Below, piece after piece: positions 13,199 through 41,331 of a DNA stretch of 64,000 nucleotides. The DNA is from an uncultured Methanoregulaceae archaeon. Lineage in GTDB: Archaea; Halobacteriota; Methanomicrobia; Methanomicrobiales; Methanospirillaceae. Both the position numbers and the translations under genes were made by a program. How positions within the stretch are numbered: position 1 is the first letter of the stretch; every line of letters starts with the position of its first letter. The notes under the pieces were generated by a model, which did not search any database, was not told the origin of the DNA, and worked only from the letters and a program-made list of their open reading frames with translations. The DNA is taken from contig OY969564.1 of NCBI GenBank assembly GCA_963701095.1, positions 352,001 to 416,000 of the forward strand, written 5' to 3'.

Positions 13199-14176
13199 AT
13201 GTTCCTTCAGCGACGAATGCGGCGGGTAAGGTCCCGCACTATCCAACCCCTTCTGCGTGAAACAACCCTGACAAAAAACGACTTCGTCGCTCCCCTTTTT
13301 GTAGATGAAACGGCAGCGGCCCCGGTGCCTATTGAGTCCATGCCCGGGCAGTCCCGGTATCCTGTTAGTTCTATAGCTACAGTTGCCGGAAAACTGTGGG
13401 AACGGGGTATCCGGGCTGTTCTTCTTTTTGGAATTCCAGCCCAAAAGGATGAAGCAGCAACTGGTTCCTATGACCCCGAAGGAATAGTGCAGCAGGCAGT
13501 GCGGCGGATAAAATCTGAATATCCTGACATGGTGGTCATAACCGATGTCTGTGCCTGCGAATACACAAGCCATGGTCATTGTGGAATTGTCGGTGGGACC
13601 CGGTGTGGGGGAAAGGACCTCTTAAATGACGAGTCCCTACTTCTCATGAACCGGATCGCAGTCAGCCATGCTGAGGCAGGAGCGGATATTGTTGCCCCGT
13701 CTTGTATGCTTGACGGGATGGTAGCGTCGATCCGGGCTGCGCTCGATGACAGTGGATATGAGGATGTCCTGATCATGTCGTATTCGACCAAATTTTCGTC
13801 AGCACTCTATGGACCGTTCCGGGAAGCTGCGGAATCAGGGTTCACGTTTGGTGATCGCACGACATACCAGATGAACCCCGCAAATGCCCGTGAGGCCTTC
13901 CTTGAGTCACGACTTGATATGGAGGAGGGGGCAGATATTTTGATGGTCAAGCCTGCAGGACCCTACCTTGATATCCTCGCTGACATTGCAAAATTAGGTC
14001 TCCCCGTGGCGGGTTACCAGGTTAGTGGAGAATACTCAATGATTAAGGCTGCATCGGAACGGGGATGGATTAAGGAAAGGGAAACGGTGCTTGAGCTCCT
14101 TACCTGTATCAAACGGGCCGGGGCTGATCTTATTATCACCTATTTTGCATACGATGCCTGCGGGTGGCTGGAATGA
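13199..14176 (+). CDS. hemB: Porphobilinogen synthase (Zn-dependent ALAD)
   Basis: [19 protein letters not shown]n site, [28 protein letters not shown]. Alternative upstream start at 13154. Confidence 0.95.
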
Positions 14177-20812: not shown

Positions 20813-20862
20813 TTTTGCAATAACAGCACATGCTTATCCACTATCTCGTTCAATGGTGGCCT
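20813..20862 (+). promoter_or_regulatory. Shared upstream motif TTTTGYAA-N13-TTAWCC, copy A
   Basis: ttttgcaa taacagcacatgc ttatcc ...aatggtggc; related copies at 21482(+), 22288(+), 26370(-) and 26827(+). Confidence 0.7.
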
Positions 20863-20908
20863 GTTCTGATAGATAAAAATCAATATCAGAACAGGAATTG
20901 GAAACATA

Positions 20909-21163
20909 ATGACTGACACCCCGAAAGTAAAGGCAAGCAAAGCTGTAGATGACGCACGCGTAGCTTCACATGCTACGAATGATGATGCGAAACTCTCGTC
21001 ACATAATACCCTCAAGGATGCGAAGACCTCTGCATATTCCACACGCAATGACGCAGTAAAAGCACAGAATATATCAGATAAATTCAACATCCATGCTCAC
21101 CAGGTCGATTCCCGGGCGAAAATTGCGGCACACGAGTCTCAATCAGAATCGATGATGAAGTAA
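20909..21163 (+). CDS. Small hydrophilic protein with 11-mer repeats (LEA group 3-like)
   Basis: ASHATNDDAKL/SSHNTLKDAKT/SAYSTRNDAVK/AQNISDKFNIH/AHQVDSRAKIA/AHESQSESMMK; rich in A, S, K, D and H, no Cys or Trp. Confidence 0.65.
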   Translation: MTDTPKVKASKAVDDARVASHATNDDAKLSSHNTLKDAKTSAYSTRNDAVKAQNISDKFNIHAHQVDSRAKIAAHESQSESMMK

Positions 21164-21481
21164 TGGTGAAATAAATTGATCTCTGAAGTAATTGTTTAGA
21201 TAAGTTGGATAAAAGTGAGGTATTTTTCAATAGGAAAAACCAGAGATCTTCAACCAACTTATCAGAACTGTCATTCTCAAAATTTCTTCCTGCCGTTTTT
21301 ATTGAAATCCATTCTTCCTAGGGGCACATCCATGGCGTTGTATGCGCTTAACGGAACTTCAAGAACGTAATGTCGTCCTACTGCACCAGTCCTGCGGGTA
21401 ACGAGTTTCCGAGATGTACGAAAACCTATCTGCAGAAAGGATCGAACAGATCGTTTTTCAGAAAACAATAATTGTAACGTT

Positions 21482-21531
21482 TTTTGCAATAACAGCACAG
21501 CCTTAACCGCCAGGCAGCTCAATGGTGGCTT
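21482..21531 (+). promoter_or_regulatory. Shared upstream motif, copy B
   Basis: ttttgcaa taacagcacagcc ttaacc ...caatggtggcttgttctgatag, a near-duplicate of copy A and its leader. Confidence 0.7.
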
Positions 21532-21547
21532 GTTCTGATAGAGAAAA

Positions 21548-22102
21548 ATGATTTCGGGACAAGGAGTTGAAAACATTATAACTGACACGAAACAAGATGC
21601 GGCCAAATCCGCAAAAGCCAAAAGAACTGCTGACAAAGCTACGCTTAAAATGCATGATGACGTAACCACATCGCTCGAGCAGCTGGAACATCCCGGAGTA
21701 ACAGCCAAGAAAGTACCAGAAGAGCCAAAAACCGGTGCCCATAAACACATGACCGGTGAAGAAAAGATTGCCACTTTCAATCAGCACAAGCATGCCGGAG
21801 GTGAAAATCATAAGGGCTCCCCAGCTACAAGTGCCCACAAAGATGTTCCCGGCCATTCAAAGACTGAGATCCAGAAACTAATGTATTCACATATTTCTAA
21901 GGCACTTGCGAAAGCGAAGTTCCCCATCTCCACCCGTGCAGAGTTCATATCTGCTTTTCCACACGGTGCAGAAACAACCTGTCATGTGGGTAACTGCACA
22001 ATGACCGCCGGAGATGCGGAAAAACTTATAAGACCCACAGACTTCCCGTTCAGGAATGTGAAGTCAGTTGCTGATGTTATCATTGCGCGGACTGAATCAT
22101 AA
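21548..22102 (+). CDS. MTH865-family domain protein with a Lys/His-rich hydrophilic N-terminal extension
   Basis: C-terminal ALAKAKFPISTRAEFISAFPHGAETTC...MTAGDAEKLIRPTDFPF..VADVI matches the MTH865 family pattern. Confidence 0.75.
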   Translation: MISGQGVENIITDTKQDAAKSAKAKRTADKATLKMHDDVTTSLEQLEHPGVTAKKVPEEPKTGAHKHMTGEEKIATFNQHKHAGGENHKGSPATSAHKDVPGHSKTEIQKLMYSHISKALAKAKFPISTRAEFISAFPHGAETTCHVGNCTMTAGDAEKLIRPTDFPFRNVKSVADVIIARTES

Positions 22103-22287
22103 CCTCGATTTTTTCGGTTCTAAAATAACCGAGACTGATGACCATAAGTTCGGCAAGTGATCGTTTCCTGAGGTGCGCGCAAATGGCACCAAGTAGAGGA
22201 ACGGTAATAATCCCTCCAGATTATTATATCATAGGAATTCAATTTATTCTCGTTTTTTTAAGATTCTGCAATAAGACGGGAATCAGA

Positions 22288-22314
22288 TTTTGCAACTTTA
22301 GTGCAAGATTATCC
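22288..22314 (+). promoter_or_regulatory. Shared upstream motif, copy E (orphan, faces the 3' end of the TMEM175 gene)
   Basis: aatcagattttgcaa ctttagtgcaaga ttatcc; upstream gattattatatcatag is also shared with the region at about 26756. Confidence 0.55.
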
Positions 22315-22343
22315 AGTAAACCGGAATTCACTGTTTGCTGTAG

Positions 22344-22985
22344 TCAGGCAAAACGTCCGATTATATAAATTACGATGGGGATCATCAGGTATAGTGATAA
22401 ACTCCAGATGCTCCCCTCCAGTGCGAAAATGATGCACGCAATGGAGATCCCGGGGACGACAAGGTTTTGTAAACTGACTTTTCTGATGTATTCTGGTCTC
22501 AGCGTTGACTCTATAAGCCGGTAGTCGTGCGATGCGTACCACCAGAGGAAGCATATACAGACACCGATAGCAAAGAGATTTGCTTCAAATACCATTGGAC
22601 CGATCGGGATTGTGGAAAAATCGCCAGAATATGATGTTGAAAAAGGAAGGAGCGCAACAAACATGAGCATAACGAGATTAATCCAGGTGAATATTGTATC
22701 ATGAGCCCGTATTGAATAGAACAGTGTGCGTTGGCTGAGCCAGAATACCCCGAGAATAAGAAACGCGAGAACATAATTCAAGAAAGCAGAACCAAGGGAG
22801 ACGAGAACATGAAGTGCATAATAATCTGATGGTATTAGTGATGTTTTTTCCGGCAGGCCCAGTCCAATGACAAGAAGCGTCATCGCGAACGCGAAGATAC
22901 CGTCAGAAAGTGCTTCCAGTCTGCCTTTGAGGAGATGTGATACGTTCTCGGTATTTTCTTCTGTCATAATTTTCCTCGTCTCCAT
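22344..22985 (-). CDS. TMEM175-family (DUF1211) potassium channel
   Basis: RLEALSDGIFAFAMTLLV signature, LLPFST, about six TM helices. Confidence 0.9.
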   Translation of the reverse strand: METRKIMTEENTENVSHLLKGRLEALSDGIFAFAMTLLVIGLGLPEKTSLIPSDYYALHVLVSLGSAFLNYVLAFLILGVFWLSQRTLFYSIRAHDTIFTWINLVMLMFVALLPFSTSYSGDFSTIPIGPMVFEANLFAIGVCICFLWWYASHDYRLIESTLRPEYIRKVSLQNLVVPGISIACIIFALEGSIWSLSLYLMIPIVIYIIGRFA

Positions 22986-23243
22986 ACTGCGAAGTGATCG
23001 GATTTATGTTCTTGGGATTTTTGCAAAGAAAATAATTGGATCGTGCAAAAAAATTTATCTGAGGTTCTTTTGTCTGGCTAATATTTTATAAAAAAATTGG
23101 ATTGGATAAGATACTGATTTTTGCCGCATGATTGCACCCATATTGCAGCAGATGCAAAAAGATTGAATATCATGAAGGATCATTTCTGTTTTCTCGCTTG
23201 ATCGCCCGGGTGCTTATATTCGTTCCATGATAAAGGACCGGTT

Positions 23244-24314
23244 CTATGAACTAGAGGGAACAGACCTCCACACATCATTCAGATATCCGTTGCTGTAACC
23301 GCCCATCAACACTATGCTGTTATCCGGCATTGCCACAATGCTCTGACCTTCTCTTCCCGACCAACCGGCGTGGGCGATTATCTCAGCCCAGGTGGCGCCG
23401 TTATCTGTAGAGCGCAATACATTATCCGGATGTCTGCCTCCGGTATCCTCGCCTCCCACAAGCACTATGCTTCCGTCTTGCATCGCCACGCTGCTTTGGT
23501 ATGATCGTGGCGGCCAACCGGCATGAGCGGTCATTTCAGTCCATGTGGCGCCGTTATCCGTTGACCGCCATACGTCATTGTAATGGGAAATGTTATTGTT
23601 CGCATCCCCAACACCACCCATGAGCACTATGCTACCGTCAGACATTGCTACACTGCTTTGGTATGATCGTGGCGGCCAACCGGCATGAGCGGTCATTTCA
23701 GTCCATGTGGCGCCGTTATCCGTTGACCTCCACACGTCATTGTACGTGGTAATAACATTGTTTGTATTCCCTACACCACCCATGAGCACTATGCTGCCAT
23801 CCGGCATTGCTACACTGCTTTGGTATGATCGTGGCGGCCAACCGGCATGAGCGGTCATTTCAGTCCACGTAGAGCCGTTATCTGCTGACCTCCATACGTC
23901 ACTTTTATCTCCGTTAAAATCGTTACCACCCATCAGCACTATGCTGTTATCCGGCGTTGCCACAATGCTCAGACCGTTTCTTCCTGACCACCCGGCATCT
24001 GCAGTCATTTCAGTCCATGTAGCGCCGTTATCTGTAGACCTCCATACATCATTGTAACTGGGAACTGTATCGCTTGAACCCCCCATGAGCACAATACTGC
24101 CGTCCCGCATCGCCGCGCTACTCTGGAAAAATCGTGGCGACCACCCGGCGTGTGTGGTCATCTCAGTCCAGTGCGTTGTATTGAATGGATGGGTTCTGTT
24201 AGATCCAGTGGGTCCATGAGAGGTAAGGTTCGTTGATCCTGTGGTTGTGCACCCGGCAACAATTATCGTTCCCATGTAAATGATCATAAGAATGAAGATT
24301 GTTTTTTTCAGCAT
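23244..24314 (-). CDS. Lipoprotein with Kelch/Asp-box (BNR) beta-propeller repeats
   Basis: Lipobox IVAGC; six repeats of WTEMTAHAGW..R...S.VAMPDGSIVLMGG...NDVWRSTDNGATW. Confidence 0.85.
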   Translation of the reverse strand: MLKKTIFILMIIYMGTIIVAGCTTTGSTNLTSHGPTGSNRTHPFNTTHWTEMTTHAGWSPRFFQSSAAMRDGSIVLMGGSSDTVPSYNDVWRSTDNGATWTEMTADAGWSGRNGLSIVATPDNSIVLMGGNDFNGDKSDVWRSADNGSTWTEMTAHAGWPPRSYQSSVAMPDGSIVLMGGVGNTNNVITTYNDVWRSTDNGATWTEMTAHAGWPPRSYQSSVAMSDGSIVLMGGVGDANNNISHYNDVWRSTDNGATWTEMTAHAGWPPRSYQSSVAMQDGSIVLVGGEDTGGRHPDNVLRSTDNGATWAEIIAHAGWSGREGQSIVAMPDNSIVLMGGYSNGYLNDVWRSVPSSS

Positions 24315-24720
24315 ATCTCCCTCATACTATCCTGATATGATAATGATTGTCGTTGGAATCAAATTGATCTACTGAACCATCCTTGGAATTGTCCATTAAA
24401 ATTTTTATCCGGCTTTATCAAAACGACGAGTAAAGTAACCGTGAGTTGAGTGTGTTTCAGCCAATAATCCAACGCTACCATGTGTTCCGGGCAGGAGGAG
24501 CGAGCCCCAGTTTCTGTCCGTTAGACCGCCACCAGATATAAAGAAAACTGATATATGGATCTCTTTTATCCGCCAGCGTCGTCATGGTTCCATAAAAGGA
24601 AAATCAACAACAGTCCTGTTCCTTCTCTGTTTTCAATAAACACATTTCCAATAATGTATCCCTCAACGCGTTTTTGTTATGATATCGGTTGTTTCCTTAC
24701 AGCCAAATTCTTTGTATTAG

Positions 24721-25995
24721 TTATTCCGTCTTATACCTGAGGATTGCTCCAATTCCCCCATACAACGACAGGAATGTTAGCCCCTCTTCAGTAGCATCAG
24801 AAATAATAACCGTCTTCGCATGGGTTTGATCGGCCATGTGTGTCAGTTCTTCTGTTATGTCCATCTGTTCGTTTTCCAGAACAGGATCTGTGCAGACACG
24901 GCACGTATGTACAAGGATATCCTTTATTCCGGATCCCGGTTCCAGATTAAACGTCCGCTCTTCCCCATGCCCGCATTCCTGGCATGTGACGCGAAACCGG
25001 TTTTTGCGAAGGGATGCTGACAGAAGAAGTGTTCCTACGGCTCCGTCTGCAAGGTTTTTACGAACACTTTCTTCACCTTGCACTGCAACCCCGCCTCTGT
25101 TTTCGAGATCTTCGAAAAACCTCTTTATGAGAACCTTTTGGTTTTCGGTGTCTGTTCCTTTGATGATTTCCTGTGCTTTATTCGCAAGCTCCCACAACCC
25201 CGCCTTGTCCGTACGTGCTACTTCGACAAGGCCAATAACTCTTTGCCGGACTTCATGATTGAGGTAATCACCTTCGAGGAAATTTTCCCGTGTTGGTGTC
25301 TGTCCCCCAATCATGACTCCCCGAAATCGTTTGAAATAATCTCTCTCAGAAAGGAAAACCGTGCTTGCGTGTTCACCAACCCGGGCAAAAAACTCATTGA
25401 TTGCAATCTGCCGTCCACGCTGAAACCGGGGTGCAGACTGCCCCCCTTTTTTCTGTTTACTTGAAACATTTGCAGTGGCACTCCCTTTAAATTCAATATG
25501 ATCGCCACGAAGAAAGCCCCAATATGCTTCACGCACATCGATTGTAATCAAACCGTAAACATTCATCATCCCCAGCATCTGTTTGAGAGGTTCTACATCG
25601 TACATCGATGCACAACGGTAGAGATATATGTTGAGCGATTCAGGCGGTTCAATAACGGTGCAGGGAAGATCAGTTCCGTTTATGTCAGTCAGGTTTTTTC
25701 CGCAGAACAGTGCGACGCCGTGCGGCGGAATGTGTTCGTAATTTTTCAAACGCGAAAGAATCGAAGAAATTGTCTTTTGCACATGGGTACGCGTCTCTTT
25801 ATCACTGATAAGTTCCGTTTTTGTATATTCATCTTTCAGGTATTCTGTCACTTCAGAGAGATTTTTGTCCGGAGGGATATACAAGGTGATGAGTTCATGC
25901 CCATCCGCTTCTTCTGATTCGAGTTTTTTAAGTGTTGCCTCAAATTCGTAAATTTTTTGGGATTCCTCAACCTCTCCGGGTTCCGGCTTTTTCAT
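24721..25995 (-). CDS. prf1: Divergent archaeal peptide chain release factor 1 (aRF1) paralog
   Basis: ELITLYIPPDK, YLYRC, KGGQSAPRF, zinc knuckle CQEC...CRVC and YGGIGAILRY; NIKS position reads LISD; AGGAGG RBS. Confidence 0.88.
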   Translation of the reverse strand: MKKPEPGEVEESQKIYEFEATLKKLESEEADGHELITLYIPPDKNLSEVTEYLKDEYTKTELISDKETRTHVQKTISSILSRLKNYEHIPPHGVALFCGKNLTDINGTDLPCTVIEPPESLNIYLYRCASMYDVEPLKQMLGMMNVYGLITIDVREAYWGFLRGDHIEFKGSATANVSSKQKKGGQSAPRFQRGRQIAINEFFARVGEHASTVFLSERDYFKRFRGVMIGGQTPTRENFLEGDYLNHEVRQRVIGLVEVARTDKAGLWELANKAQEIIKGTDTENQKVLIKRFFEDLENRGGVAVQGEESVRKNLADGAVGTLLLSASLRKNRFRVTCQECGHGEERTFNLEPGSGIKDILVHTCRVCTDPVLENEQMDITEELTHMADQTHAKTVIISDATEEGLTFLSLYGGIGAILRYKTE

Positions 25996-26027
25996 TTTCC
26001 TGTCCTCCTGAAATTTTAAATCGGTTT

Positions 26028-26290
26028 ATTTCACCTTCAATGTAAATTTGAAAATGTGTGCTCCGATTTTTGTACGGGAATCAGCCTGGCGAGTTCGATA
26101 GTGAATTTACCTGATTTTTCCTGTGATTTGATTTCATCATTGCATGTAGGTCTGTAGCGACCTTTGCCTCCCAGCGGGTTGATGGGGATGAACACGGGGC
26201 CCCCTCACTCACGTTATGGGATGCCATGCGAGAGTTATTGACGAAATTGCAGCCTTTTTGGGATTGCCCGATCTGATTTCCGACTCTTTT
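26028..26290 (-). pseudogene. Decayed paralog of the LEA-like 20909 ORF, upstream of aRF1
   Basis: Minus strand caggctgattcccgtacaaaaatcggagcacac vs caggtcgattcccgggcgaaaattgcggcacac in the 20909 gene; downstream ggtgaaataaa shared; frameshifted, no start codon. Confidence 0.65.
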
Positions 26291-26320
26291 ATACGGCTAT
26301 TTTTAATTCTTTATAGGCGT

Positions 26321-26370
26321 AAGCCACCATGGTGTGAAGAAGTGGATAAGCCTGTCCTGTTGTTACAAAA
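26321..26370 (-). promoter_or_regulatory. Shared upstream motif, copy C (faces the pseudogene and aRF1)
   Basis: ttttgtaacaacaggacaggcttatccacttcttcacaccatggtggctt is 38/50 identical to copy A, ungapped. Confidence 0.7.
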
Positions 26371-26826
26371 TTTGCAGTAAAAATAATCAGGTTCTGCACA
26401 AATCCCCTCTCAAGAAGTGCATAGAAAGCGAAAAAGGATGGTGTTCGGTGTCTTTTATCAATGCGATTGGTTGATCCGATATAATGTCTGTGAACATAGA
26501 GCCTATTGATAATGTATCGCAGCGTTCTGGTGTTTAATCTGTGACTGTTATATCTACCAGGTCGAATTCATTCCATTCGCCTTTGATCGTTAAATATCTC
26601 GTTCCGGGTTCACGTACGGCAAAAAGAATAAAAAAATGAAACGGTTACCATAAACGTCAGTCCGTTAATAAAAAATTTCCAAAAGAAGAAGTCTCTAAAG
26701 AAAGGACAAACAGACTTAACTCAGAACCAATCTGGAACCTATGATAAATTCTTTGGATTATTATATCATAGAACTTTTTTTTCTGATTTTATTAGTGAGA
26801 TCTCCTGTAAGAGTGCACGAATCAGA

Positions 26827-26877
26827 TTTTGCAACAACGGGACATACTTATCCGTTTACCCGCTGGAATGGCTGGCG
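26827..26877 (+). promoter_or_regulatory. Shared upstream motif, copy D (upstream of the DedA gene)
   Basis: ttttgcaa caacgggacatac ttatcc ...aatggctggc. Confidence 0.65.
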
Positions 26878-29705: not shown

Positions 29706-30209
29706 TCCTATTACCTCCTGAGATAATTTACCCTTCAATATCCCGGAGGATTATTAATTGTATGGTTATTTTACAAATTATAGAATTGAGGACTTGGTGA
29801 TTTTACATTGAGGAGTTTCTCTTTCATTAAACCTTAGATTCAATAGAAATCAAGATTCCTGATAGATATTATGTTCAACGTACTGGTCATGAATATGAAA
29901 ATATATTTTTGACACACAAAAAACGCGAACAAATGCTGTCATTTCGCAAAAATCGAAAAGAACCGGGCATGTCTTGTCCCATGCCCGGAGTTACGTGGTT
30001 GTACTGCGTGCTCATGGTGACCGCCCTTCTTGCGGTCGGATTCTTATAATTTTGAGAGGTTAAAAATTAATGGATATCTTCTATTTTTTGCAATAATTTT
30101 CAGTTATCTGGTTCTACTACGGATTCAGAATGCTAAATTAGTGTATGTTGACGAAGCACACCAATTTTATTTTTCGTTATATTCTGGAACCGATGTACCG
30201 GAAAAGAAA

Positions 30210-31468
30210 GGTAGTGTCTCTATAATGCTGTAAAATCAGCACACCCAGTATCCAAAGAGATCATCTCACTCTTCACAGATAAATACCGGTTACCCGTGAT
30301 CCACTCCTCATTAATATCGATAAGGATCGAACCGGTAAGTCTTAACAACGAAGCATCATTCGGGAAAGCCCCTATTTTTCTGCTCCGTCGTTTGAGTTCT
30401 TTATTAACCCGTTCCAGGAGATTAGTAGTCCGGATCTTTTTCCAGTGTTCCGGGGGAAATGCCCGGTAATTCATCAGGCCGTGCTCGAACCGGTAGATGG
30501 TATCAGCAGCCCGAGAGAGCCCGAAATTCTCCAGTTCCTTCGCATAAGCAAGTAAGAGAGCATGATCACTGAGACATTCTTTGAGTCGTTCGGCGATCGA
30601 CTTGTGATATTTTCGGGAGACTTTTCTCAGAACTGCCCGGATAAAATGAACGTGACAAAGCTGCCATGATGAGCCAGGGAACATCCTTTCGGCAGCCGAT
30701 TGGATCCCGGAATGTCCATCTGAAATAACGAGATCCACCTTACTGAGACCACGATCCTTGAGGTCGGAAAATATTCCTTCCCAGGTAAGTTCATGTTCCG
30801 CATCAGCTACACGAGCTCCGAGGATCTCCCGGTATCCGTCTTCCCGTACCCGGCTACTACGAGAAGAGTCTTTGTTGACGTACTTGACTCCATCTCTTAC
30901 TTTGAAGTACGATGCATCGACGAAAAGATACGGAAAGTGTGAGTCGATGGTTCTTTCCATAAACTCCGTGATTTTCACATCGAGTTCCTGTGCTACCTTC
31001 GAGACGTAGGACGCCGAAATCTGGGTGACGCCCAGATGTGAGATTACTTTCTCGACATTCCGGGTCGATACGCCCTGAAGATACGATTCGATGATCGCGT
31101 TCACGAGCGCTTTCTCAGCCCGGGAGTATCGTTCGAATACTTTTGTCTCAAACGGGATCTCGCGTAACTGCGGTTTCTGGAGCATGAGATCCCCGAACCG
31201 GGTCTTCAGGGACCTAGACCGGTACCCGTTCCGATGCGCTCTTCTCGAACTCGATCTCGCGTGTTTCGGTACTCCGGCTTGTTGGGCCACTTCCTCGTTC
31301 ATCACATCGTTCAGAAACCACGTGATGAGCTGTTGCATTCCCTTCTCGTTATCGGTAAGATAATTTAGTACGATGTCGTTTAGATTCATTGCCCTGTATT
31401 CTCCTTGTTGCAATCTGATGTTGGATACAGGGCGTCTTCACTTTTTACAGCACTTCGTGTACACTACC
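30210..31468 (-). mobile_element. IS256-family insertion sequence, copy 1 (no target-site duplication)
   Basis: 26-bp imperfect TIRs ggtagtgtctctataatgctgtaaaa / ggtagtgtacacgaagtgctgtaaaa; flanks aaaagaaa and tgatggca do not match. Confidence 0.92.
30220..31413 (-). CDS. IS256-family (Mutator-like) DDE transposase
   Basis: RNGYRSR, YLQGVSTR, YLFVDA, VISDGH, WQLCHVHF, IRTTNLLERVNKELKRR. Confidence 0.95.
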   Translation of the reverse strand: MQQGEYRAMNLNDIVLNYLTDNEKGMQQLITWFLNDVMNEEVAQQAGVPKHARSSSRRAHRNGYRSRSLKTRFGDLMLQKPQLREIPFETKVFERYSRAEKALVNAIIESYLQGVSTRNVEKVISHLGVTQISASYVSKVAQELDVKITEFMERTIDSHFPYLFVDASYFKVRDGVKYVNKDSSRSSRVREDGYREILGARVADAEHELTWEGIFSDLKDRGLSKVDLVISDGHSGIQSAAERMFPGSSWQLCHVHFIRAVLRKVSRKYHKSIAERLKECLSDHALLLAYAKELENFGLSRAADTIYRFEHGLMNYRAFPPEHWKKIRTTNLLERVNKELKRRSRKIGAFPNDASLLRLTGSILIDINEEWITGNRYLSVKSEMISLDTGCADFTAL

Positions 31469-32801
31469 TGATGGCATCCGGCAATCTCGAATTCAAACTG
31501 GATCTTAAGCCGCCTACAGAAAACACAAGATCTGCTTACGAACAGTTCGTCATTATAAATTCAATGATCGAGAAAGTCCGCGAAGCACTCATACTCATGA
31601 TTGCTGATGCCAATATGCTCGCCGATGCTGCCGTAGCAGGAAAGCTCGAAACCCGTGCTGATGCCTCTCGTCACGAGGGAGATTTCCGTAAAATTGTCGA
31701 AGGTGTCAATGTCACACTCGATTCTGTAATCAGGCCGGTCAACGAAGCCCTCCGAATGTCCCAGGAATACGCAAAGCAGAACTTCTCAGCCAGAGTGGAT
31801 GAAAACCTCAAAGTAGCTGGCGATTTCTTGGCATTTAAAAATGCCCTTAACAATATCGGGATTGCCGTATCAGCTGCTGTGAAAACCGTGAATATGCAAA
31901 CGGGAAATCTGTCAGTTTCTTCGGCGAAAGCACTCTCAAATCTTAAAGATGTATCAACTGCATCTGATCGGATTACTGCCAATGCCCAAAAAGTCAATGA
32001 AAACGCCGGCATAAGTGCACAGGGTGTGGAACAGGTACTCAAGGCAATGGAAGATATGAATTCTGCAATCGAACAGGTGACAGCCAGCATGGAAGGCGTT
32101 TCATTGCAGGCAAAACAGGCATCAGAAGCGTCAAAAAACGGTGCCATCCTTGCTGAGAATGTAGAAAAAGGCATGGGCGATATTACGAAATCCACCGATT
32201 CGGTGAACAGTATTGTCAAAGACATCGAAAAGCAGATGGCCGATATCTCCAAGATTGTTGTTCTAATTCGAGACCTTGCAAACCAAACAAACCTACTTGC
32301 CCTCAATGCTGCCATTGAAGCAGCTCGGCCGGTGAAGCCGGCCGAGGATTTGCGGTTGTTGCCGTTGAAGTTAAAGCCTTGGCACAGGAATCAAAGACCA
32401 GCGCCGAAAAAATAGAGGAGATGATTTCGACCCTCAATAAATCCACAAAGAAAGCGGCAGTTGCAATGGACGATACGCACAGCCTAGTTATAAAAGGCAC
32501 AACAATGTCAACCGAAGCATTCGACGCGTTCCAGAAAATTAAAGTCGCTGCAGAAGGTGTCGCAAATTCTGTCTCCGAAGTTGCTGGTGCTTCAGAGCAG
32601 CAGGCAGCAGCGGTCGAAGAGATCACCGCAAGTGTCCAGGAAGTAAGGATAAAAATTGAAGGCACAGCTAAAGAAGCAAAAGAAGCCGCAGAAGCGGCAG
32701 AAGAAGCAACTGTAGCGATAGATGAAGTGAACAAAGTTGTTGTAAACGTCAATGCGATCGCTGAGAGCGTGTCCCGAGAAATGGCGAAGTTTACTCTTTG
32801 A
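31469..32801 (+). pseudogene. Methyl-accepting chemotaxis protein, 5'-truncated at the IS256 end (also a single-base deletion at about 32328)
   Basis: HAMP-like segments, then LANQTNLLALNAAIEAAR / (A)GEAGRGFAVVA hairpin-tip motif split across frames; sequence starts mid-domain exactly at the IS end. Confidence 0.85.
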
Positions 32802-35968: not shown

Positions 35969-35982
35969 TTCCTGGAGTGTGT

Positions 35983-38900
35983 ATGGCCCCGATTTCTGTT
36001 CTTTATGTTGATGACGATGTAACTCTTCTCGACATCTGTAAGATATTTCTCGAAGATGGTGGAAAATTCAAGATCGATACATCGGAATCAGCCAAAGACG
36101 CGTTAAAAAAGATGTCCTCCAATACCTATGACGCGATCTTATCGGACTACCAGATGCCAAAGATGGATGGCATTCAGTTCCTTATCGAAATCCGGAAACG
36201 TTTTGGGTCAATCCCATTCATTCTTTTCACCGGCAGGGGCAGGGAAGAGGTAGTTATCCAGGCGCTCAACAGCGGAGCGGACTTCTATCTCCAGAAAGGC
36301 GGGGATCCTGAGTCACAGTTTGCAGAACTTTCTAACAAGATCACTTATGCCATATCGCGAAGACGTGCGGAGGCGGCAAAGCAGGAGAGTGATGCAAGTC
36401 TTGATCTTGCACTTCGTTCAGCAGAAATGGGGGTCTGGCATTGGGACATTATAGAGGGGAAACGATATTTTGACGACACGACCTGTCATCTTTTAGGGAT
36501 CGATCCGTCCGTATTCACGGGATCTGCAGAAGAATTTTTCAAGGTAGTCCATCCCGAGGACCATCAAATACTGAAAGATTCACTCAACCGTACTATTGAG
36601 CAAGATGTGCTTTATGAGCCAGTGTATCGTGTCATACATCCTGATGGAAGTTTCCGCTTCGTAGCCGCCCGTGGCAGACTGGTAAAAAATGCCGCTGGAA
36701 AACCGGAACGGATTAATGGAATAATCTGGGATATCACCGAACGCAAACAGACAGAAGAAGAACTGCATGTACTCACTGATCGCCTGTTCCTCGCAACGCG
36801 TGCAGGTGGCGTTGGTATTTGGGATTATGATGTTGTCCATAATACGCTGGTATGGGATGACCAGATGTTTGCCCTCTACGGGATTACACGGGAGCAGTTT
36901 GGCGGAGCCTATGAAGCATGGCAGGCCGGACTTCACCCGGATGACCGGACGCTTGGAGATGAAGAGTTCCAGAAGGCATTACGCGGAGAGAAGGATTTCA
37001 ACACCGAGTTCCGTGTCCTCTGGGCTGATGGCAGCACCCATTACATCCGGGCCCTTGCCATAGTTCAACGGGATTCAGATAGTAAACCTCTGCGTGTAAT
37101 CGGCACGAACTGGGACATCACCGAACGCAAGCAGATGGGCGAGCAGCTGGATATGGAAAGGACCTTCATCGACGCCATCTTCAACAGCGCTCCCGGTATG
37201 ATCTATCTTTACAATACCGACGGGCAACTGGTTCAGTGGAACAAAAACCATGAGCGGATGACCGGTTACTCTGCCGAAGAATTATCGCATATGCACTTAT
37301 TGGACTGGTATAAAGGCGATGCAGAAAGTCAAGCAGCAGTGACGGAAGGCATCAGGACAACAATCGAAAAAGGATTCGGCTATGCCGAAGCCAACCTGCA
37401 GAAGAAAGACGGCACACGCATTCCCATGTATTTTACGGCCAGTCCGCTGCTAATCAATGGCCAGCAGTACTTTACCGGTATTGGGATCGACATTACCGAA
37501 CGAAAACGGGCAGAAGAGGCGCTGCTCAAGAGAAACGAAGAACTCCACGGAGCCTATGAGCAGATCCAAGCAACCGAAGAGGAACTCCGTGGAAACCTGG
37601 ATGAATTGAGCCGGCAGGAACAGGGATTGCGGCGAAGCGAGGAGAAATACCGCTCACTCTACATCCATATGATTGAAGGTGCAGCGCTTCACCAGCTCAC
37701 CTTCACCGATCAGGGGATACCTGATGATTATATCATTCTTGAAACAAATCCTGCGTTTGAAAAACAGCTAGGCATATCCCGAAATGACGTCATTGGTAAA
37801 ACCAGCCGGGAAGCCTATGGTGTATCCGAACCACCCTATCTTGAAACCTATGCAAGGGTAGCCCTCACGGGGAAACCGGAGGTTTTTGAAACCTACTTCC
37901 AGCCCCTTGACAAATATTTCTCAATATCCGTCTACTGTCCGGAAAAGGGCAAATTCGCCACAATTTTTGAAGATATCACCGAACGAAAACGGGCGGACGA
38001 AGTGCTAAAAGAGAGCGAAGCAAAGTTCCGTTTTCTTTCCGAAAGCAGTCCGGATTATATCATGCGGTATGATCGTCAGTGTCGTCATACTTACATGAAT
38101 CAGGCGGGATTACGGGTTTCTGGATTGACAGCAGATCAGCTCATCGGAAAAACCCATCGTGAAGCCGGGTATGATGAGGATCTCAGCCGGATGTGGGAAG
38201 AGAAGATAACCGGGGTTTTCGAGACCGGTAAACCCAGCCGGACCCAGTTTGAGTGGGGCAGTGCCGAAGGTCGTGTTGTCATTGACTGGCTACTCACCCC
38301 GGAATTAGCCGACGATGGCTCCGTCAGATCAGTACTGGGAGTTTCAAGAGATATTACCCGGCTCAAACAGGCTGAAGAAGGGTTAGAATCCGCACAACAG
38401 AAACTTAAAGAGGTTCATCACCTGGCCCATATCGGAACATGGGATTGGGTTGTTGATACAGATACGGTAACCTGGTCTGATGAATTATACGAGATCGCCG
38501 GCTGGGATCCCGCAAAACCTGCGCCAACGTATGCACAACATCCCTGTTGTTATACCCCATCCAGCTGGGAGAGACTAGACACAGCGGTAAAAAAGGCGCT
38601 CACTACAGGAGAGCCATATAACCTTGAACTGGAACTGGTCCGGCCTGATGGCAGTACACGATGGACGAATGCCTTTGGTGGCAGGATGACCGATGCGAGC
38701 GGCAAATGTATCGGCCTTCATGGCACTATGCAGGACATCACCGAGCGAAAACGGGCAGAGGAAAAACTGAAGGAAAGCGAAGTACTCCTTGCCGAGGCAC
38801 AACGCATTGCTCACATGGGGAGCTGGAGCTGGGATTTCACCACAAACAAGGTCGCGTGGTCGGATGAGATGTACCGGATTTTCGGGATATCTCCCGATAT

Positions 38901-41331
38901 CTATGATGGAACTCCGGAGATGGCCCTGAATGTTGTTCATCCTGATGACAGGGAGCGCTTTATACAGAATATGGAGGACATTATGTCCCGGGGTGTATGG
39001 AATCCTCTCGAATATCGCGTGATCCATTCCGACAGATCCATCCACATTGTCTATGCCAATGGTGTTGTCGAGTTCGACAATGCAGGCAATCCGGTCAGGA
39101 GCACCGGCACAGTTCAGGACATCACCGAACGTAAGCTGGCTGAACAGGAACTGCAAAAATCCCGGAGTGAATATGTCCATCTGCTTGAGAATATACACGA
39201 TATATACTACCGTAGCGATACAGAGGGAAGACTCGTTCTTGCAAGTACATCTTGGGCAAAAAAACTCGGGTATGATGACCTCACCGAGTGTCTCGGTAAA
39301 AATATTGCTGATACGTTCTATGCGGATCCCAGAGATCGTAAAAGATTCCTTGATGAGGTTTACAAAAACGGTTACGTGTCCGATTACGAAGTAAACCTGA
39401 AGAAAAAGGACGGGACAACACTCCCGGTTGCGGTAAGTAGTTACCTCTATTTCGATAAAGCCGGCACTATTCTCGGGATTGAAGGTACATGGCGTGATAT
39501 CACTGAGCGCAAAAAAATGGAAAATGCCCTGAGAGAGAGCGAAAAGAATTACAGCCTTATTTTAGAGAATGCAAACGATGCAATCTTTCTCCACGAGATA
39601 TTGCCGGATGGCAGGCCAGGAAAGTACGCTTTGGTTAATACAATTGCCTGCCAAAGACTCGGCTACACCCATGATGAACTGCTGCAAATGTCAGTCAGTG
39701 ACGTGGCTTCTCCTAGACATATCCCCAATATACCGGAGTTAGCAAAGAAGTTGCATCAAGATGGATATGCAACCTTTGAAGGGATCCACCGGAGAAAGGA
39801 CGGCACAGAGTTTCCTGTCGAGAATAGCACTCACATATTCGAGATGGGTGGCCGAAAGGTTGCAATAACGTTTTCTCGCGACATCACTGACCGCAAACAG
39901 ATCGAAGAAGCATTGAAAAAGAGCGAGGAAAAGTACCGGAATGTGATAGAAGTCCAGACCGAACTCATTTGCCGGTTCCGACCTGACGGAACTCACATCT
40001 TTGTCAATGAAGCATATTGCCGTTATTTTGGTGTAAAACGGGAAGATCTCCTCGGACATCGTTTCATACCATGCATCCCTGATGGGGACAGGGAGTTCCT
40101 GAAACAGTTCTTTGCCTCATTAACCCCGGACCACCCCAGTGGTGATATCAGGCACCGCATCATCATGCCAGATGGAAATGTGCGGTGGCAGCGATGGAGC
40201 GACCTGGCCATCTTCGATTCAGAGGGTCATATAACTGAGTATCAATCGGTCGGGCGAGATATCACCGATATGAAAAAGGCTGAAGAAGCGCTTGCTGAAA
40301 GCGAAGAAAAATACCGCACTCTTGTCGAAAAGGCAAACGAGGCAATTATCATTGTTCAGGATGAACATTTCGTTTTCGCCAACTCAAAGATGTCTGAACT
40401 TCTTGGTGTGCCGAAAGAAGATTTTATAGGCAAGTCTATAATCGATTTCATCTGGCCTGATGATCGGAAAATGGTGATGGAGAAATACCGGAGACGTATG
40501 AATGGAGAAGCGCAAAGTGACGCGTACGATTTCCGGATCGTTGGAAAAGAGGGCAGACTGAGATGGGTCTTCCTGCAGGCTGCGTTAATCCAATGGAATG
40601 GAAAGCCGGCAACGCTCAACATCTTGACCGACATCACCGAACGCAAGCAGGCTGATGAGGCAATCCGTCTGATGAATAAGAAACTCAATATCCTTTCCAG
40701 TATCACTCGTCACGACCTTAAGAACCAACTTATGGCATTAAAATCTTATCTGGCGATCTCAAAACGTGTTTTCGGCGATCCTGCAAAAACGTCAGAGATT
40801 AATGCCAAGGAAGAGGAGGTAATAAAAAACATCGAACGTCAGATCGACTTCACCAAAGAATACGAGGACATCGGCGTTAAGGCCCCGATATGGCAAAACT
40901 GCCACACGCTCGTGGAGCACGCATCAAAGCAAATCTCGTTTGGGCAGATTATCGTGAAAAACAATGTCCCCAAATGTACTGAAATGTTTGCTGATTCGTT
41001 AGTTGTCAAAGTTTTCTATAATTTGATGGAGAATGCAATCCGTCATGGCGGTAAAGTCACGACCATCAGGTTCTTTACTGAAGAACGTGATGGTGCTAAT
41101 ATCATCGTGTGTGAAGACGATGGAGACGGTATTATTCCAGGAGAAAAGGAGGCGATTTTCGACCGAGGATTCGGGAGGAACACCGGCCTTGGACTTTTCC
41201 TTGCCCGGGAGATTCTCGATATCACCGGGATCAAAATCTCAGAAACCGGTGAGCCGGGAATAGGGGCACGATTCGAAATCGCAGTCCCTAAAGGTGCCTT
41301 CAGGCTGTCCGATGAAAATACCATATGTTAG
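35983..41331 (+). CDS. Very large REC-multi-PAS/PAC histidine kinase
   Basis: VLYVDDD REC; many PAS/PAC units ending in DITERK; ITRHDLKNQL; HATPase boxes. Confidence 0.93.
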   Translation: MAPISVLYVDDDVTLLDICKIFLEDGGKFKIDTSESAKDALKKMSSNTYDAILSDYQMPKMDGIQFLIEIRKRFGSIPFILFTGRGREEVVIQALNSGADFYLQKGGDPESQFAELSNKITYAISRRRAEAAKQESDASLDLALRSAEMGVWHWDIIEGKRYFDDTTCHLLGIDPSVFTGSAEEFFKVVHPEDHQILKDSLNRTIEQDVLYEPVYRVIHPDGSFRFVAARGRLVKNAAGKPERINGIIWDITERKQTEEELHVLTDRLFLATRAGGVGIWDYDVVHNTLVWDDQMFALYGITREQFGGAYEAWQAGLHPDDRTLGDEEFQKALRGEKDFNTEFRVLWADGSTHYIRALAIVQRDSDSKPLRVIGTNWDITERKQMGEQLDMERTFIDAIFNSAPGMIYLYNTDGQLVQWNKNHERMTGYSAEELSHMHLLDWYKGDAESQAAVTEGIRTTIEKGFGYAEANLQKKDGTRIPMYFTASPLLINGQQYFTGIGIDITERKRAEEALLKRNEELHGAYEQIQATEEELRGNLDELSRQEQGLRRSEEKYRSLYIHMIEGAALHQLTFTDQGIPDDYIILETNPAFEKQLGISRNDVIGKTSREAYGVSEPPYLETYARVALTGKPEVFETYFQPLDKYFSISVYCPEKGKFATIFEDITERKRADEVLKESEAKFRFLSESSPDYIMRYDRQCRHTYMNQAGLRVSGLTADQLIGKTHREAGYDEDLSRMWEEKITGVFETGKPSRTQFEWGSAEGRVVIDWLLTPELADDGSVRSVLGVSRDITRLKQAEEGLESAQQKLKEVHHLAHIGTWDWVVDTDTVTWSDELYEIAGWDPAKPAPTYAQHPCCYTPSSWERLDTAVKKALTTGEPYNLELELVRPDGSTRWTNAFGGRMTDASGKCIGLHGTMQDITERKRAEEKLKESEVLLAEAQRIAHMGSWSWDFTTNKVAWSDEMYRIFGISPDIYDGTPEMALNVVHPDDRERFIQNMEDIMSRGVWNPLEYRVIHSDRSIHIVYANGVVEFDNAGNPVRSTGTVQDITERKLAEQELQKSRSEYVHLLENIHDIYYRSDTEGRLVLASTSWAKKLGYDDLTECLGKNIADTFYADPRDRKRFLDEVYKNGYVSDYEVNLKKKDGTTLPVAVSSYLYFDKAGTILGIEGTWRDITERKKMENALRESEKNYSLILENANDAIFLHEILPDGRPGKYALVNTIACQRLGYTHDELLQMSVSDVASPRHIPNIPELAKKLHQDGYATFEGIHRRKDGTEFPVENSTHIFEMGGRKVAITFSRDITDRKQIEEALKKSEEKYRNVIEVQTELICRFRPDGTHIFVNEAYCRYFGVKREDLLGHRFIPCIPDGDREFLKQFFASLTPDHPSGDIRHRIIMPDGNVRWQRWSDLAIFDSEGHITEYQSVGRDITDMKKAEEALAESEEKYRTLVEKANEAIIIVQDEHFVFANSKMSELLGVPKEDFIGKSIIDFIWPDDRKMVMEKYRRRMNGEAQSDAYDFRIVGKEGRLRWVFLQAALIQWNGKPATLNILTDITERKQADEAIRLMNKKLNILSSITRHDLKNQLMALKSYLAISKRVFGDPAKTSEINAKEEEVIKNIERQIDFTKEYEDIGVKAPIWQNCHTLVEHASKQISFGQIIVKNNVPKCTEMFADSLVVKVFYNLMENAIRHGGKVTTIRFFTEERDGANIIVCEDDGDGIIPGEKEAIFDRGFGRNTGLGLFLAREILDITGIKISETGEPGIGARFEIAVPKGAFRLSDENTIC

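Follow-up and report, generated by a model that had tools for sequence, protein, structure and literature searches.

What use could a methanogen have for a second release factor that has lost the residues by which stop codons are read? The question is raised by a gene on contig OY969564.1 of an uncultured Methanoregulaceae archaeon, within the 64,000-nucleotide stretch of DNA analysed here (hereafter the window), where it occupies positions 24721..25995 of the minus strand and encodes a protein of 424 residues related to archaeal release factor 1 (aRF1). A sequence-only reading of this DNA had described an intact open reading frame (ORF) behind a strong ribosome-binding site, and both are confirmed: the frame runs uninterrupted from an ATG, and an AGGAGG, read from the sequence, stands 8 nt 5' of that codon (26004..26009, minus strand). 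As far as sequence can tell, the gene is an intact, selected and accessory aRF1 paralogue that has lost its stop-codon-reading residues and kept its catalytic loop. We propose that its product may be a stop-codon-independent, stress-linked peptide release or rescue factor, a reading to which we would give a probability of roughly one half.

Domains, fold and tree all place the protein in the aRF1/eRF1 family. It matches the Pfam domains eRF1_1 (residues 27-141, 55.5 bits), eRF1_2 (147-279, 93.8 bits) and eRF1_3 (286-422, 70.0 bits), and it scores 423.1 bits on the NCBIfam aRF-1 equivalog model TIGR03676 (cut-off 234.7), the match spanning positions 2-403 of the 403 in the model. Among solved chains the aRF1 of 4af1 comes nearest (E 1.9e-78, residues 10-423). 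An AlphaFold model built from 119 aligned relatives reached a mean predicted local distance difference test score (pLDDT) of 78.9, and a model from the 16-row paralogue alignment alone was unusable (pLDDT 42). With the former, Foldseek matched aRF1/eRF1 chains over about 415 columns, 4af1 again at the top (E 7.4e-36, 417 columns), and the N domain compared with 2llx gave a template-modelling score of 0.81. Chains of Balon and Pelota ranked after aRF1/eRF1 with far weaker scores (E 1e-18 to 1e-14 for Balon).

A canonical aRF1, which the sequence-only reading had proposed to look for elsewhere in the genome, is indeed encoded 1.1 Mb away with every motif present (G000:C1:1482666-1483892, 580 bits; G000 is the label of the window's own genome of 2.63 Mb, other G labels denote other genomes and L labels individual loci), so that the paralogue is not the sole aRF1 of its host. 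An ungapped alignment of the two proteins, which are 53% identical, bears out the motif states that had been read by eye. The NIKS motif (canonical residues 60-63) has become L62-I63-S64-D65 and the G-T of the GT loop has become G32-H33, both losses having been claimed before. Retained, as had also been claimed, are the catalytic loop KGGQSAPRF with GGQ at residues 184-186, the zinc knuckle CxxC...CxxC (C338/C341/C365/C368), the C-terminal GGIGAILRY (residues 413-421) and the tyrosine and cysteine of YxC. To these we add a change in the last residue of YxCxxxF, which reads Y126-R-C128-A-S-M-Y132 with the terminal Phe now Tyr. Measured by the features of a stop-codon-decoding class-1 release factor, the protein has GGQ and lacks NIKS, the GT threonine and a complete YxCxxxF. 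Its likeness to canonical aRF1 (TIGR03676; 4af1) extends to descent, length, the three domains, GGQ, the zinc knuckle and GGI(A/G)AILRY; it differs in having lost NIKS, GT and the final Phe of YxCxxxF, and also in its standing, since canonical aRF1 is universal whereas the paralogue is accessory, evolves faster at non-synonymous sites and lies in a variable region with stress-type neighbours.

The same losses recur in a whole group of relatives, which we divide into 'par', to which the window protein belongs, and its sister group 'par2'. A search of 5.8 billion proteins with the window protein returned 15 clusters at 62-91% identity, which have the same motif losses, the next ones dropping to about 55%; a second protein search, with a 'par2' member as query, added about 32 further clusters, one of them labelled Methanoregula sp. 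The metagenomic loci L053, L055, L058 and L059, also without decoding motifs, belong to 'par2', as do the second aRF1 copies of same-genus genomes, which likewise lack these motifs. In a curated alignment GT, NIKS, YxCxxxF and GGQ are all present in 63 of 63 canonical Methanomicrobiales aRF1 rows; among the paralogue rows NIKS is found in 0/25, GT in 0/25 and GGQ in 24/25. Because all four motifs stand in every canonical row and neither NIKS nor GT in any paralogue row, the motif loss exceeds chance. Pooling the two database searches gave 158 protein clusters, of which 106 have NIKS and, without exception (106/106), GT, YxCxxxF and GGQ as well. The 52 clusters without NIKS comprise 48 paralogues, 2 truncated sequences and 2 that read NIKG but are otherwise canonical; GGQ is present in 51 of these 52 and in 47 of the 48 paralogue clusters. 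In the roughly 48 intact paralogue clusters the C-terminal motif, GGQ and the four knuckle cysteines are all conserved, cluster P0004 being the exception for GGQ.

Within the paralogues the decoding region is not uniform. A complete YxCxxxF is found in 2/16 'par' rows and 0/9 'par2' rows, and the shorter YxC in 15/16 and 1/9, respectively. The N and K positions of NIKS are variable, with 12 different tetrapeptides among the 16 'par' rows, and the NIKS loop is shortened in at least three 'par2' members; x-I-x-D recurs at this position, with Ile in nearly all members and Asp in most, and the flanking DKETRT is conserved.

Short extra aRF1 homologues of 349-362 residues also occur in haloarchaea (L076-L081; genomes G647, G507, G581, G563 and G605). 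They score 195-333 bits on the aRF-1 model and have GGQ in 6/6, and four of the six lack both NIKS (reading QRDD, KLDE, YLDA and YLDE) and YxC. We regard them as an independent case of decoding-motif loss with GGQ kept.

The sequence-only reading had asked whether the copies that lack NIKS and keep GGQ would form one clade, and they do. Two trees were computed with IQ-TREE in quick mode under LG+C20 by posterior mean site frequency (71 and 77 rows), rooted on haloarchaeal first copies and leaving out both the short haloarchaeal paralogues and the second copy of G342, which is 38% identical to the window protein. They support 'par' at 99%, 'par2' at 100% and the two together at 100%, with a stem 0.31-0.33 changes per site long, and the joint clade is nested inside Methanomicrobiales aRF1. 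The free tree joins it to the canonical aRF1 of other genera in the family (99% support) and not to that of the host genus; placement with the host genus's own aRF1 is not rejected by an approximately unbiased (AU) test chosen after the tree was seen (p 0.134). The clade may have arisen by duplication within the genus or by transfer.

A second aRF1 in a methanogen is not in itself new. According to the accessible part of a report in PNAS 2025 (PMC12626013), 4.3% of archaeal genomes (n = 81), Methanosarcina for the most part, have two aRF1 copies, which are seen there as by-products of genome expansion. The aRF1-2 of Methanosarcina (M. barkeri, M. acetivorans; Alkalaeva 2009, cited in PMC12626013) resembles our paralogue in that it too is full-length, bears GGQ and accompanies a canonical aRF1. 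The second copies found in five genomes of the Methanosarcina family group with one another (100% support), next to the first copies of that family and far from the paralogue clade; they keep the Thr of GT in 5/5, N-I at the NIKS position (NIKS, NIKP, NIQP, NIES) and YxCxxxF in 4/5, and the aRF1 model gives them 560-581 bits, the window paralogue 423. Trees and motifs rule out that the two are one duplication, and since the Methanosarcina copies form a separate clade and keep N-I, the GT threonine and mostly YxCxxxF, theirs is a different, milder event, a duplication inside Methanosarcinaceae.

How widespread are these genes? The genome sets are samples that include many incomplete metagenome-assembled genomes (MAGs), so the counts are of copies found in the genomes searched, and they rest on profile searches of whole genomes, a search of genome contigs with the single protein having given no relative. 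Among 121 genomes of the family, two full-length aRF1 matches were found in the window's genome only, G045 and G110 giving two matches that were pieces at contig ends. A clade-profile search of 401 genomes of the order gave a 'par' score only in the window's genome, in G355 of the same genus and in G201 of another family; intact 'par2' copies were found in G339, G391, G344, G392 and G342. In addition, G365 has a contig-end fragment 72% identical to the window protein, and G399 a fragment of unassigned type. Two copies of the canonical type with all motifs each were seen in G314 (C1:81171-82397 and C5:254514-255740) and in G278 (C26 and C5); these may be real duplications or mixed MAGs, contamination being 2-4%. 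Our full-text literature searches, whose coverage mostly excludes subscription journals, found no description of a NIKS-less, GGQ-positive aRF1 clade of Methanomicrobiales.

Selection on the clade was predicted to be purifying, and pairwise Nei-Gojobori estimates agree: the ratio of non-synonymous to synonymous rates (dN/dS, omega) is 0.14-0.33 in 13 paralogue pairs with dS from 0.25 to above 1, thus not near 1, and 0.009-0.029 in four canonical pairs with unsaturated dS. The window paralogue and its orthologue in L049 differ by dN 0.050 and dS 0.36 (omega 0.14). In the pair G339/G391, dS is 0.62 for the second copies and 0.59 for the canonical ones, and because it is the same in both we take the second copies to have been inherited together with the canonical ones; the dN of the second copies is 27 times higher, the excess over the canonical gene ranging from 10 to 27 times in the pairs compared. 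Constraint is seen on all three domains (omega 0.07-0.37), the GGQ-bearing M domain being lowest in 3/4 'par' pairs. Columns invariant in canonical aRF1 and variable in the paralogues number 23/83 in the N domain, 19/84 in the M domain and 11/58 in the C domain, T31, N60, K62, D53, G56 and C58 among them, and only four columns, none in the N domain, are fixed to a new residue. With 53 invariant columns now variable and only four newly fixed, the pattern speaks for loss rather than re-specification. We read the selection on the paralogue as purifying but relaxed, with the decoding constraint lost and a general relaxation besides, and as neither a new fixed specificity nor neutral decay.

The setting of the gene upholds the earlier claim that it lies in an accessory region, for the stretch is non-syntenic and bears an insertion sequence. 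Synteny with 15 same-genus relatives covers only window positions 14000 to about 17430 (tetrapyrrole genes, PsiE), and onward to 33000 the sequence is scattered or unmatched. The variable region is marked by a Mutator/IS256-family transposase (30220..31413, minus strand; element about 30206-31469), an element with four genome copies, the three further, near-identical ones at 403.5, 430.8 and 930.2 kb. Around the paralogue lie, on the plus strand, a hydrophilic LEA-like ORF of 84 residues without a Pfam family (20909..21163), an ORF of 184 residues that joins a hydrophilic LEA-like N-terminal half to an MTH865-like domain (21548..22102), and a DedA/VTT-domain membrane protein that adjoins the paralogue both here and in L049 (26899..27564). 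Other neighbours are a TMEM175-like channel, a TIG/PKD surface protein and a Kelch/BNR beta-propeller lipoprotein (23244..24314, minus strand), the last of which consists of tandem repeat units of 150-162 nt with 64-92% identity between units. Farther along, window positions 35977..41331 on the plus strand encode a response-regulator and histidine kinase of 1784 residues whose PAS domains number at least seven; a CheC-like gene comes after it.

In other organisms the paralogue keeps similar company. The LEA-like proteins form a small, hydrophilic family rich in His, Lys, Ala and Asp and without a Pfam family, one member being fused to the MTH865-like domain; beyond the window, members are encoded in L051 (545..1198), in L052 (791..1075) and elsewhere in the genome (432688-432873 and 458684-458851, both on the minus strand). 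A LEA-like gene stands directly 5' of the paralogue, on the same strand and in an apparent operon, both in L052 and in L051/L047 (genome G355); each is a homologue of the 84-residue ORF, that of L051/L047 being longer. A small ORF of 48 residues in the window (26081..26227, minus strand), between the upstream motif described below and the paralogue start, contains a stretch, HAMMKSNHRKNQ, resembling the L051 LEA-like protein. It was rejected as a conserved LEA-like gene before the paralogue because it is truncated in the 91%-identical L049, and for the same reason it may be the remnant of such a gene once placed there. On the 3' side of the paralogue, L050 has two membrane ORFs and a gene resembling DUF883, whose 23.9 bits fall short of the threshold of 27, and a Zn-phospholipase-C-like gene is common to L050 and G201, the latter having DUF2099 as well. 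The 'par2' loci of G339 (L100) and G391 (L101) and the locus L058 have directly 5' of the paralogue a gene for a predicted RNase with an RNA-binding domain, of the NYN plus OST-HTH/LOTUS type (L100 2882..3583 and L101 2904..3707 on the minus strand, L058 4962..5816 on the plus strand). A gene of this type is also found 9 kb from the 'par' copy in G355 (L047 605..1435), and no homologue of it was found in the window's genome. A radical-SAM gene lies 3' of the 'par2' copy in L058 and in G391 (L101), and the same gene lies 3' of the 'par' copy in L052; because it follows copies of both types, 'par' and 'par2' would occupy one ancestral locus.

The paralogue and several of its neighbours share an upstream motif. 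A 27-nt core pattern (TTTTGYAAY-N4-G-N2-CA-N2-HTTAWCC) has five exact copies in 2.63 Mb, all within window positions 20813-26853, against none in the reversed genome used as control, and nine against none when up to two mismatches are allowed. The copy of the paralogue (TTTTGTAACAACAGGACAGGCTTATCC, 26344..26370, minus strand) lies about 350 nt 5' of its start, is followed by ATGGTGGCTT as in the LEA-like copies, and is conserved in the orthologous locus L049, which keeps both motif copies and DedA. The other four, on the plus strand, stand about 70 nt before the 84-residue LEA-like ORF (20813..20839), before the second LEA-like gene (21482..21508), antisense to the end of the TMEM175-like gene (22288..22314) and before the DedA/VTT gene, divergent from the copy of the paralogue (26827..26853). 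A looser pattern (TTTTGYAA, 8-12 nt, then a TATA-like TTAW...) matches the genome 16 times against once in the control, 9 of the 16 matches falling within 372-460 kb. Four of these nine were new, and they precede a DUF2099 gene, a DUF883/ElaB-like gene and two LEA-like genes not noticed before; outside the window the element lies near 432987 (minus), 442791 (minus), 453287 (plus) and 458950 (minus) of G000:C1. The new sites are informative because the same kinds of genes adjoin the paralogue in other organisms.

A comparable element, TTTTGCAAC / CAGATTTTGCAAC, lies upstream of the LEA-like gene and the paralogue in L051/L047 (G355) and in L052, and further copies at these loci precede a ferritin gene (G355) and a small ORF beginning MTDN... 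The element takes the form (CAG)ATTTTGCAAC, with a TATA-like TTATCC/TTATAC about 12 nt on and ATGGTGGCYT after it in three copies. The small set of genes so marked clusters within 87 kb of the genome and comprises the aRF1 paralogue, four LEA-like ORFs, DedA, DUF2099 and a DUF883-like gene. The element has the look of an operator bound by some regulator. Comparison of the leader and motif region with known RNA families returned only two sub-threshold, snoRNA-like chance matches.

Could the protein be an A-site occupant of the hibernation type, which like Balon would bind idle or paused ribosomes without reading mRNA and protect or silence them, its GGQ serving only as a contact with the peptidyl-transferase centre? 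The stress-type neighbours and the motif shared with LEA-like, DUF883/ElaB-like and (in G355) ferritin genes would suit such a role, the more so as ElaB/YqjD are counted among bacterial hibernation factors in the accessible part of PMC13324472, and Balon chains are the next fold matches after aRF1/eRF1. Balon is described in the available portion of PMC10901736 as an aeRF1 homologue that binds independently of mRNA and is often encoded in stress operons; together with the Rv2629 family and a 'potential archaeal Balon', it resembles the paralogue as a NIKS-less, stress-gene-linked, three-domain A-site binder of the aeRF1 superfamily. These sources, however, define Balon, its mycobacterial homologues and the 'potential archaeal Balon' by the absence of both NIKS and GGQ, and the group has inserts of its own, whereas the paralogues keep GGQ in 24/25 rows and in 51/52 NIKS-less clusters, with the M domain the most constrained in 'par'. 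Identity to Balon chains is 10-17%, and the score on NF052289, the model of the Rv2629 hibernation factor family, is 35.4 bits, far below the cut-off of 320. With GGQ present and this score, the paralogue is not a member of the Balon/Rv2629 family, and a hibernation role of this kind seems to us unlikely.

Pelota (aDom34) belongs to the same superfamily and is a codon-independent A-site rescue factor, which differs from the paralogue in having no GGQ and in its Sm-like N domain (accessible parts of PMC2613156 and PMC6514570). The presence of GGQ and 27.7 bits on TIGR00111, against a cut-off of 177.65, exclude the paralogue from this family, and the genome has a pelota-like gene of its own (G000:C1:265706-266167).

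A role away from the translating ribosome, on peptidyl-tRNA that is released or bound to the 50S subunit after splitting, in the manner of Vms1/VLRF1, would also go with a GGQ kept and decoding residues lost. It could draw on a weak Pfam acVLRF1 match of 35.1 bits and on the occurrence of VLRF-1 families in some archaea, described in the available part of Burroughs and Aravind 2019 (PMC6514570), but the match only overlaps eRF1_2, and NF041024 (acVLRF1) gives 21.5 bits against a cut-off of 125. Membership in VLRF1/acVLRF1 is excluded by this score and by the presence of eRF1_3; the paralogue has the full classical aRF1 architecture including the C-terminal domain, without which archaeal VLRF-1 is described in the same part of PMC6514570, and it branches inside classical aRF1, so that we hold an off-ribosome role to be highly improbable. 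That part of the paper describes the baeRF-1 and VLRF-1 families and mentions no NIKS-less clade within classical aRF1, and the term NIKS is absent from the paper.

There is nonetheless a resemblance of proposed logic to ArfB/YaeJ-ICT1 and Vms1/VLRF1, each being a release-factor paralogue that keeps a catalytic Gln and has given up stop-codon reading (PMC6514570, in the part available). ArfB/ICT1 has the unrelated bacterial release-factor fold and VLRF1 families lack the classical C-terminal domain; we therefore take the likeness as one of possible working mode and not of membership. A role in recoding was ruled out as well: aragorn predicts 48 tRNAs in the genome, none for pyrrolysine (Pyl) or selenocysteine (Sec) and none a suppressor, and no PylS scores above cut-off. 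One tRNA-like gene at G000:C1:2137141-2137209 (minus strand) has a two-base 'anticodon', its identity being unassigned.

What would a release factor of this kind do? We suggest that an aRF1 of the Methanoregulaceae type was duplicated and yielded an accessory, functional paralogue that would still mimic tRNA in the A site by means of its three domains, its zinc knuckle and the C-terminal GGIGAILRY surface, which in canonical aRF1 serves delivery by aEF1-alpha. The GGQ loop would cut the peptidyl-tRNA bond. With the stop-codon-reading side chains gone (the N and K of NIKS and the threonine of GT, together with the cysteine of YxC in the sister subclade), nascent peptides would be released without the reading of a stop codon, from ribosomes halted on mRNA that is non-stop, damaged or cleaved, and ABCE1 would recycle the ribosome afterwards. 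Expression is probably tied, through the shared upstream motif, to a small stress regulon of LEA-like, DUF883/ElaB-like, DUF2099 and DedA genes. What the sequences show is the homology, the motif state, the clade, the selection, the genomic context and the shared motif; that the protein binds ribosomes, acts without regard to the codon, hydrolyses peptidyl-tRNA, is delivered by aEF1-alpha and is induced by stress is what we infer. Such a fate would have precedents, release-factor paralogues having been repeatedly recruited to the rescue of stalled ribosomes according to the accessible part of Burroughs and Aravind 2019 (PMC6514570). It is tempting to go further and to see in the clade the first archaeal GGQ-dependent, stop-codon-independent rescue factor, a counterpart of ArfB/ICT1 or Vms1 built from aRF1, with 'par' placed in a desiccation or dormancy regulon of LEA-like, DUF883 and DUF2099 genes and 'par2' coupled to an NYN-LOTUS RNase that makes its non-stop substrates; we offer this fuller picture tentatively and at somewhat less than even odds.

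Several observations weigh against a stop-codon-independent release factor under stress control. The gene is dispensable, a copy having been found in about 10 of 102 same-genus genomes and in 1 of about 299 other genomes of the order, and two of the same-genus copies are broken, by division into two pieces with a TAG in G331 and by a frameshift in G396. Cluster P0004 alone, 71% identical to the window protein, has GGE in place of GGQ and is otherwise intact, on a 20-kb contig. Furthermore, the second aRF1 of Methanosarcina was reportedly found inactive by Alkalaeva in 2009, so that a GGQ-bearing aRF1 duplicate need not be an active release factor. Scarcity and broken copies are what one would expect of a redundant duplicate heading for loss, with no function of its own and with features that reflect slow decay, and so are a dN 10 to 27 times above that of the canonical gene and a loss of constraint spread across all three domains; yet dN/dS stays at 0.14-0.33 over dS of 0.25 to above 1, GGQ, the C-terminal motif and the four knuckle cysteines persist in about 48 intact clusters, and the upstream motif and neighbours are conserved between organisms, which makes decay very unlikely in our view.

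The decoding domain itself gives further reason for caution. Purifying selection still acts on the N domain (omega 0.09-0.35), E56 and I63 are retained in the paralogues and Y126/C128 in 'par', so a specific contact with the A site or the mRNA, even a changed codon preference, may exist. A codon-dependent release factor of changed or narrowed specificity, for one stop codon or context for example, that would tune termination under particular conditions could account for this constraint as well as for the recurrent x-I-x-D, the conserved DKETRT flank and the E56 and Y-x-C kept in 'par', and ciliate eRF1s with variant NIKS do have changed specificity (Atkinson 2008, PMC2613156, accessible part). 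It fits poorly, however, with N, K and T positions that are not conserved in the clade (12 tetrapeptides in 16 'par' rows), with a loop deleted in several 'par2' members, with four newly fixed columns of which none is in the N domain, and with a genome that has no Pyl or suppressor machinery and a complete canonical aRF1. We consider altered specificity quite unlikely.

The stress link, too, must be read with care. The motif counts are partly circular because the patterns were derived from the window's own copies, and no convincing copy was seen in the 'par2' loci examined. The earlier claim of a promoter motif shared with LEA-like genes holds insofar as a common motif does lie upstream of them; its distance to the start codon of the paralogue is about 350 nt, however, and positions 26013-26020 hold a TATA-like TTTAAAAT, so control of the paralogue by the motif is no more than putative. 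Four DNA runs contain the region. In the wetland metatranscriptome X11, contigs cover the LEA-like genes (94-99% alike) and positions 25047-25379 and 25446-25713 of the paralogue; the latter, being only 90-91% alike, come from a relative, and since RNA libraries can hold DNA they give a weak hint of transcription. Parts of the window over which X11 has no contigs carry no information.

The interest of a stop-codon-independent release factor lies in a gap in archaeal translation. How archaea free ribosomes that hold peptidyl-tRNA and have no stop codon is poorly understood. Pelota with ABCE1 splits such ribosomes and leaves the peptide on the tRNA, and we know of no archaeal hydrolase of the ArfB or Vms1 kind whose action has been demonstrated. 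With GGQ kept, with NIKS, GT and part of YxCxxxF lost, and under purifying selection in about 48 lineages, the paralogue is a candidate for an archaeal rescue hydrolase. It would also offer a natural separation-of-function mutant in which to study how decoding is coupled to catalysis in a/eRF1. Atkinson et al. 2008 (PMC2613156) regard both NIKS and YxCxxxF as universal to a/eRF1 except for NIKS variants in ciliates and YxT in some Crenarchaeota; the clade qualifies this statement outside ciliates. All its members carry the database label 'peptide chain release factor aRF-1 / subunit 1', and they pass for ordinary duplicates when aRF1 copies are counted. Finally, the linked motif would define a small, previously unnoticed putative stress regulon in wetland and soil methanogens.

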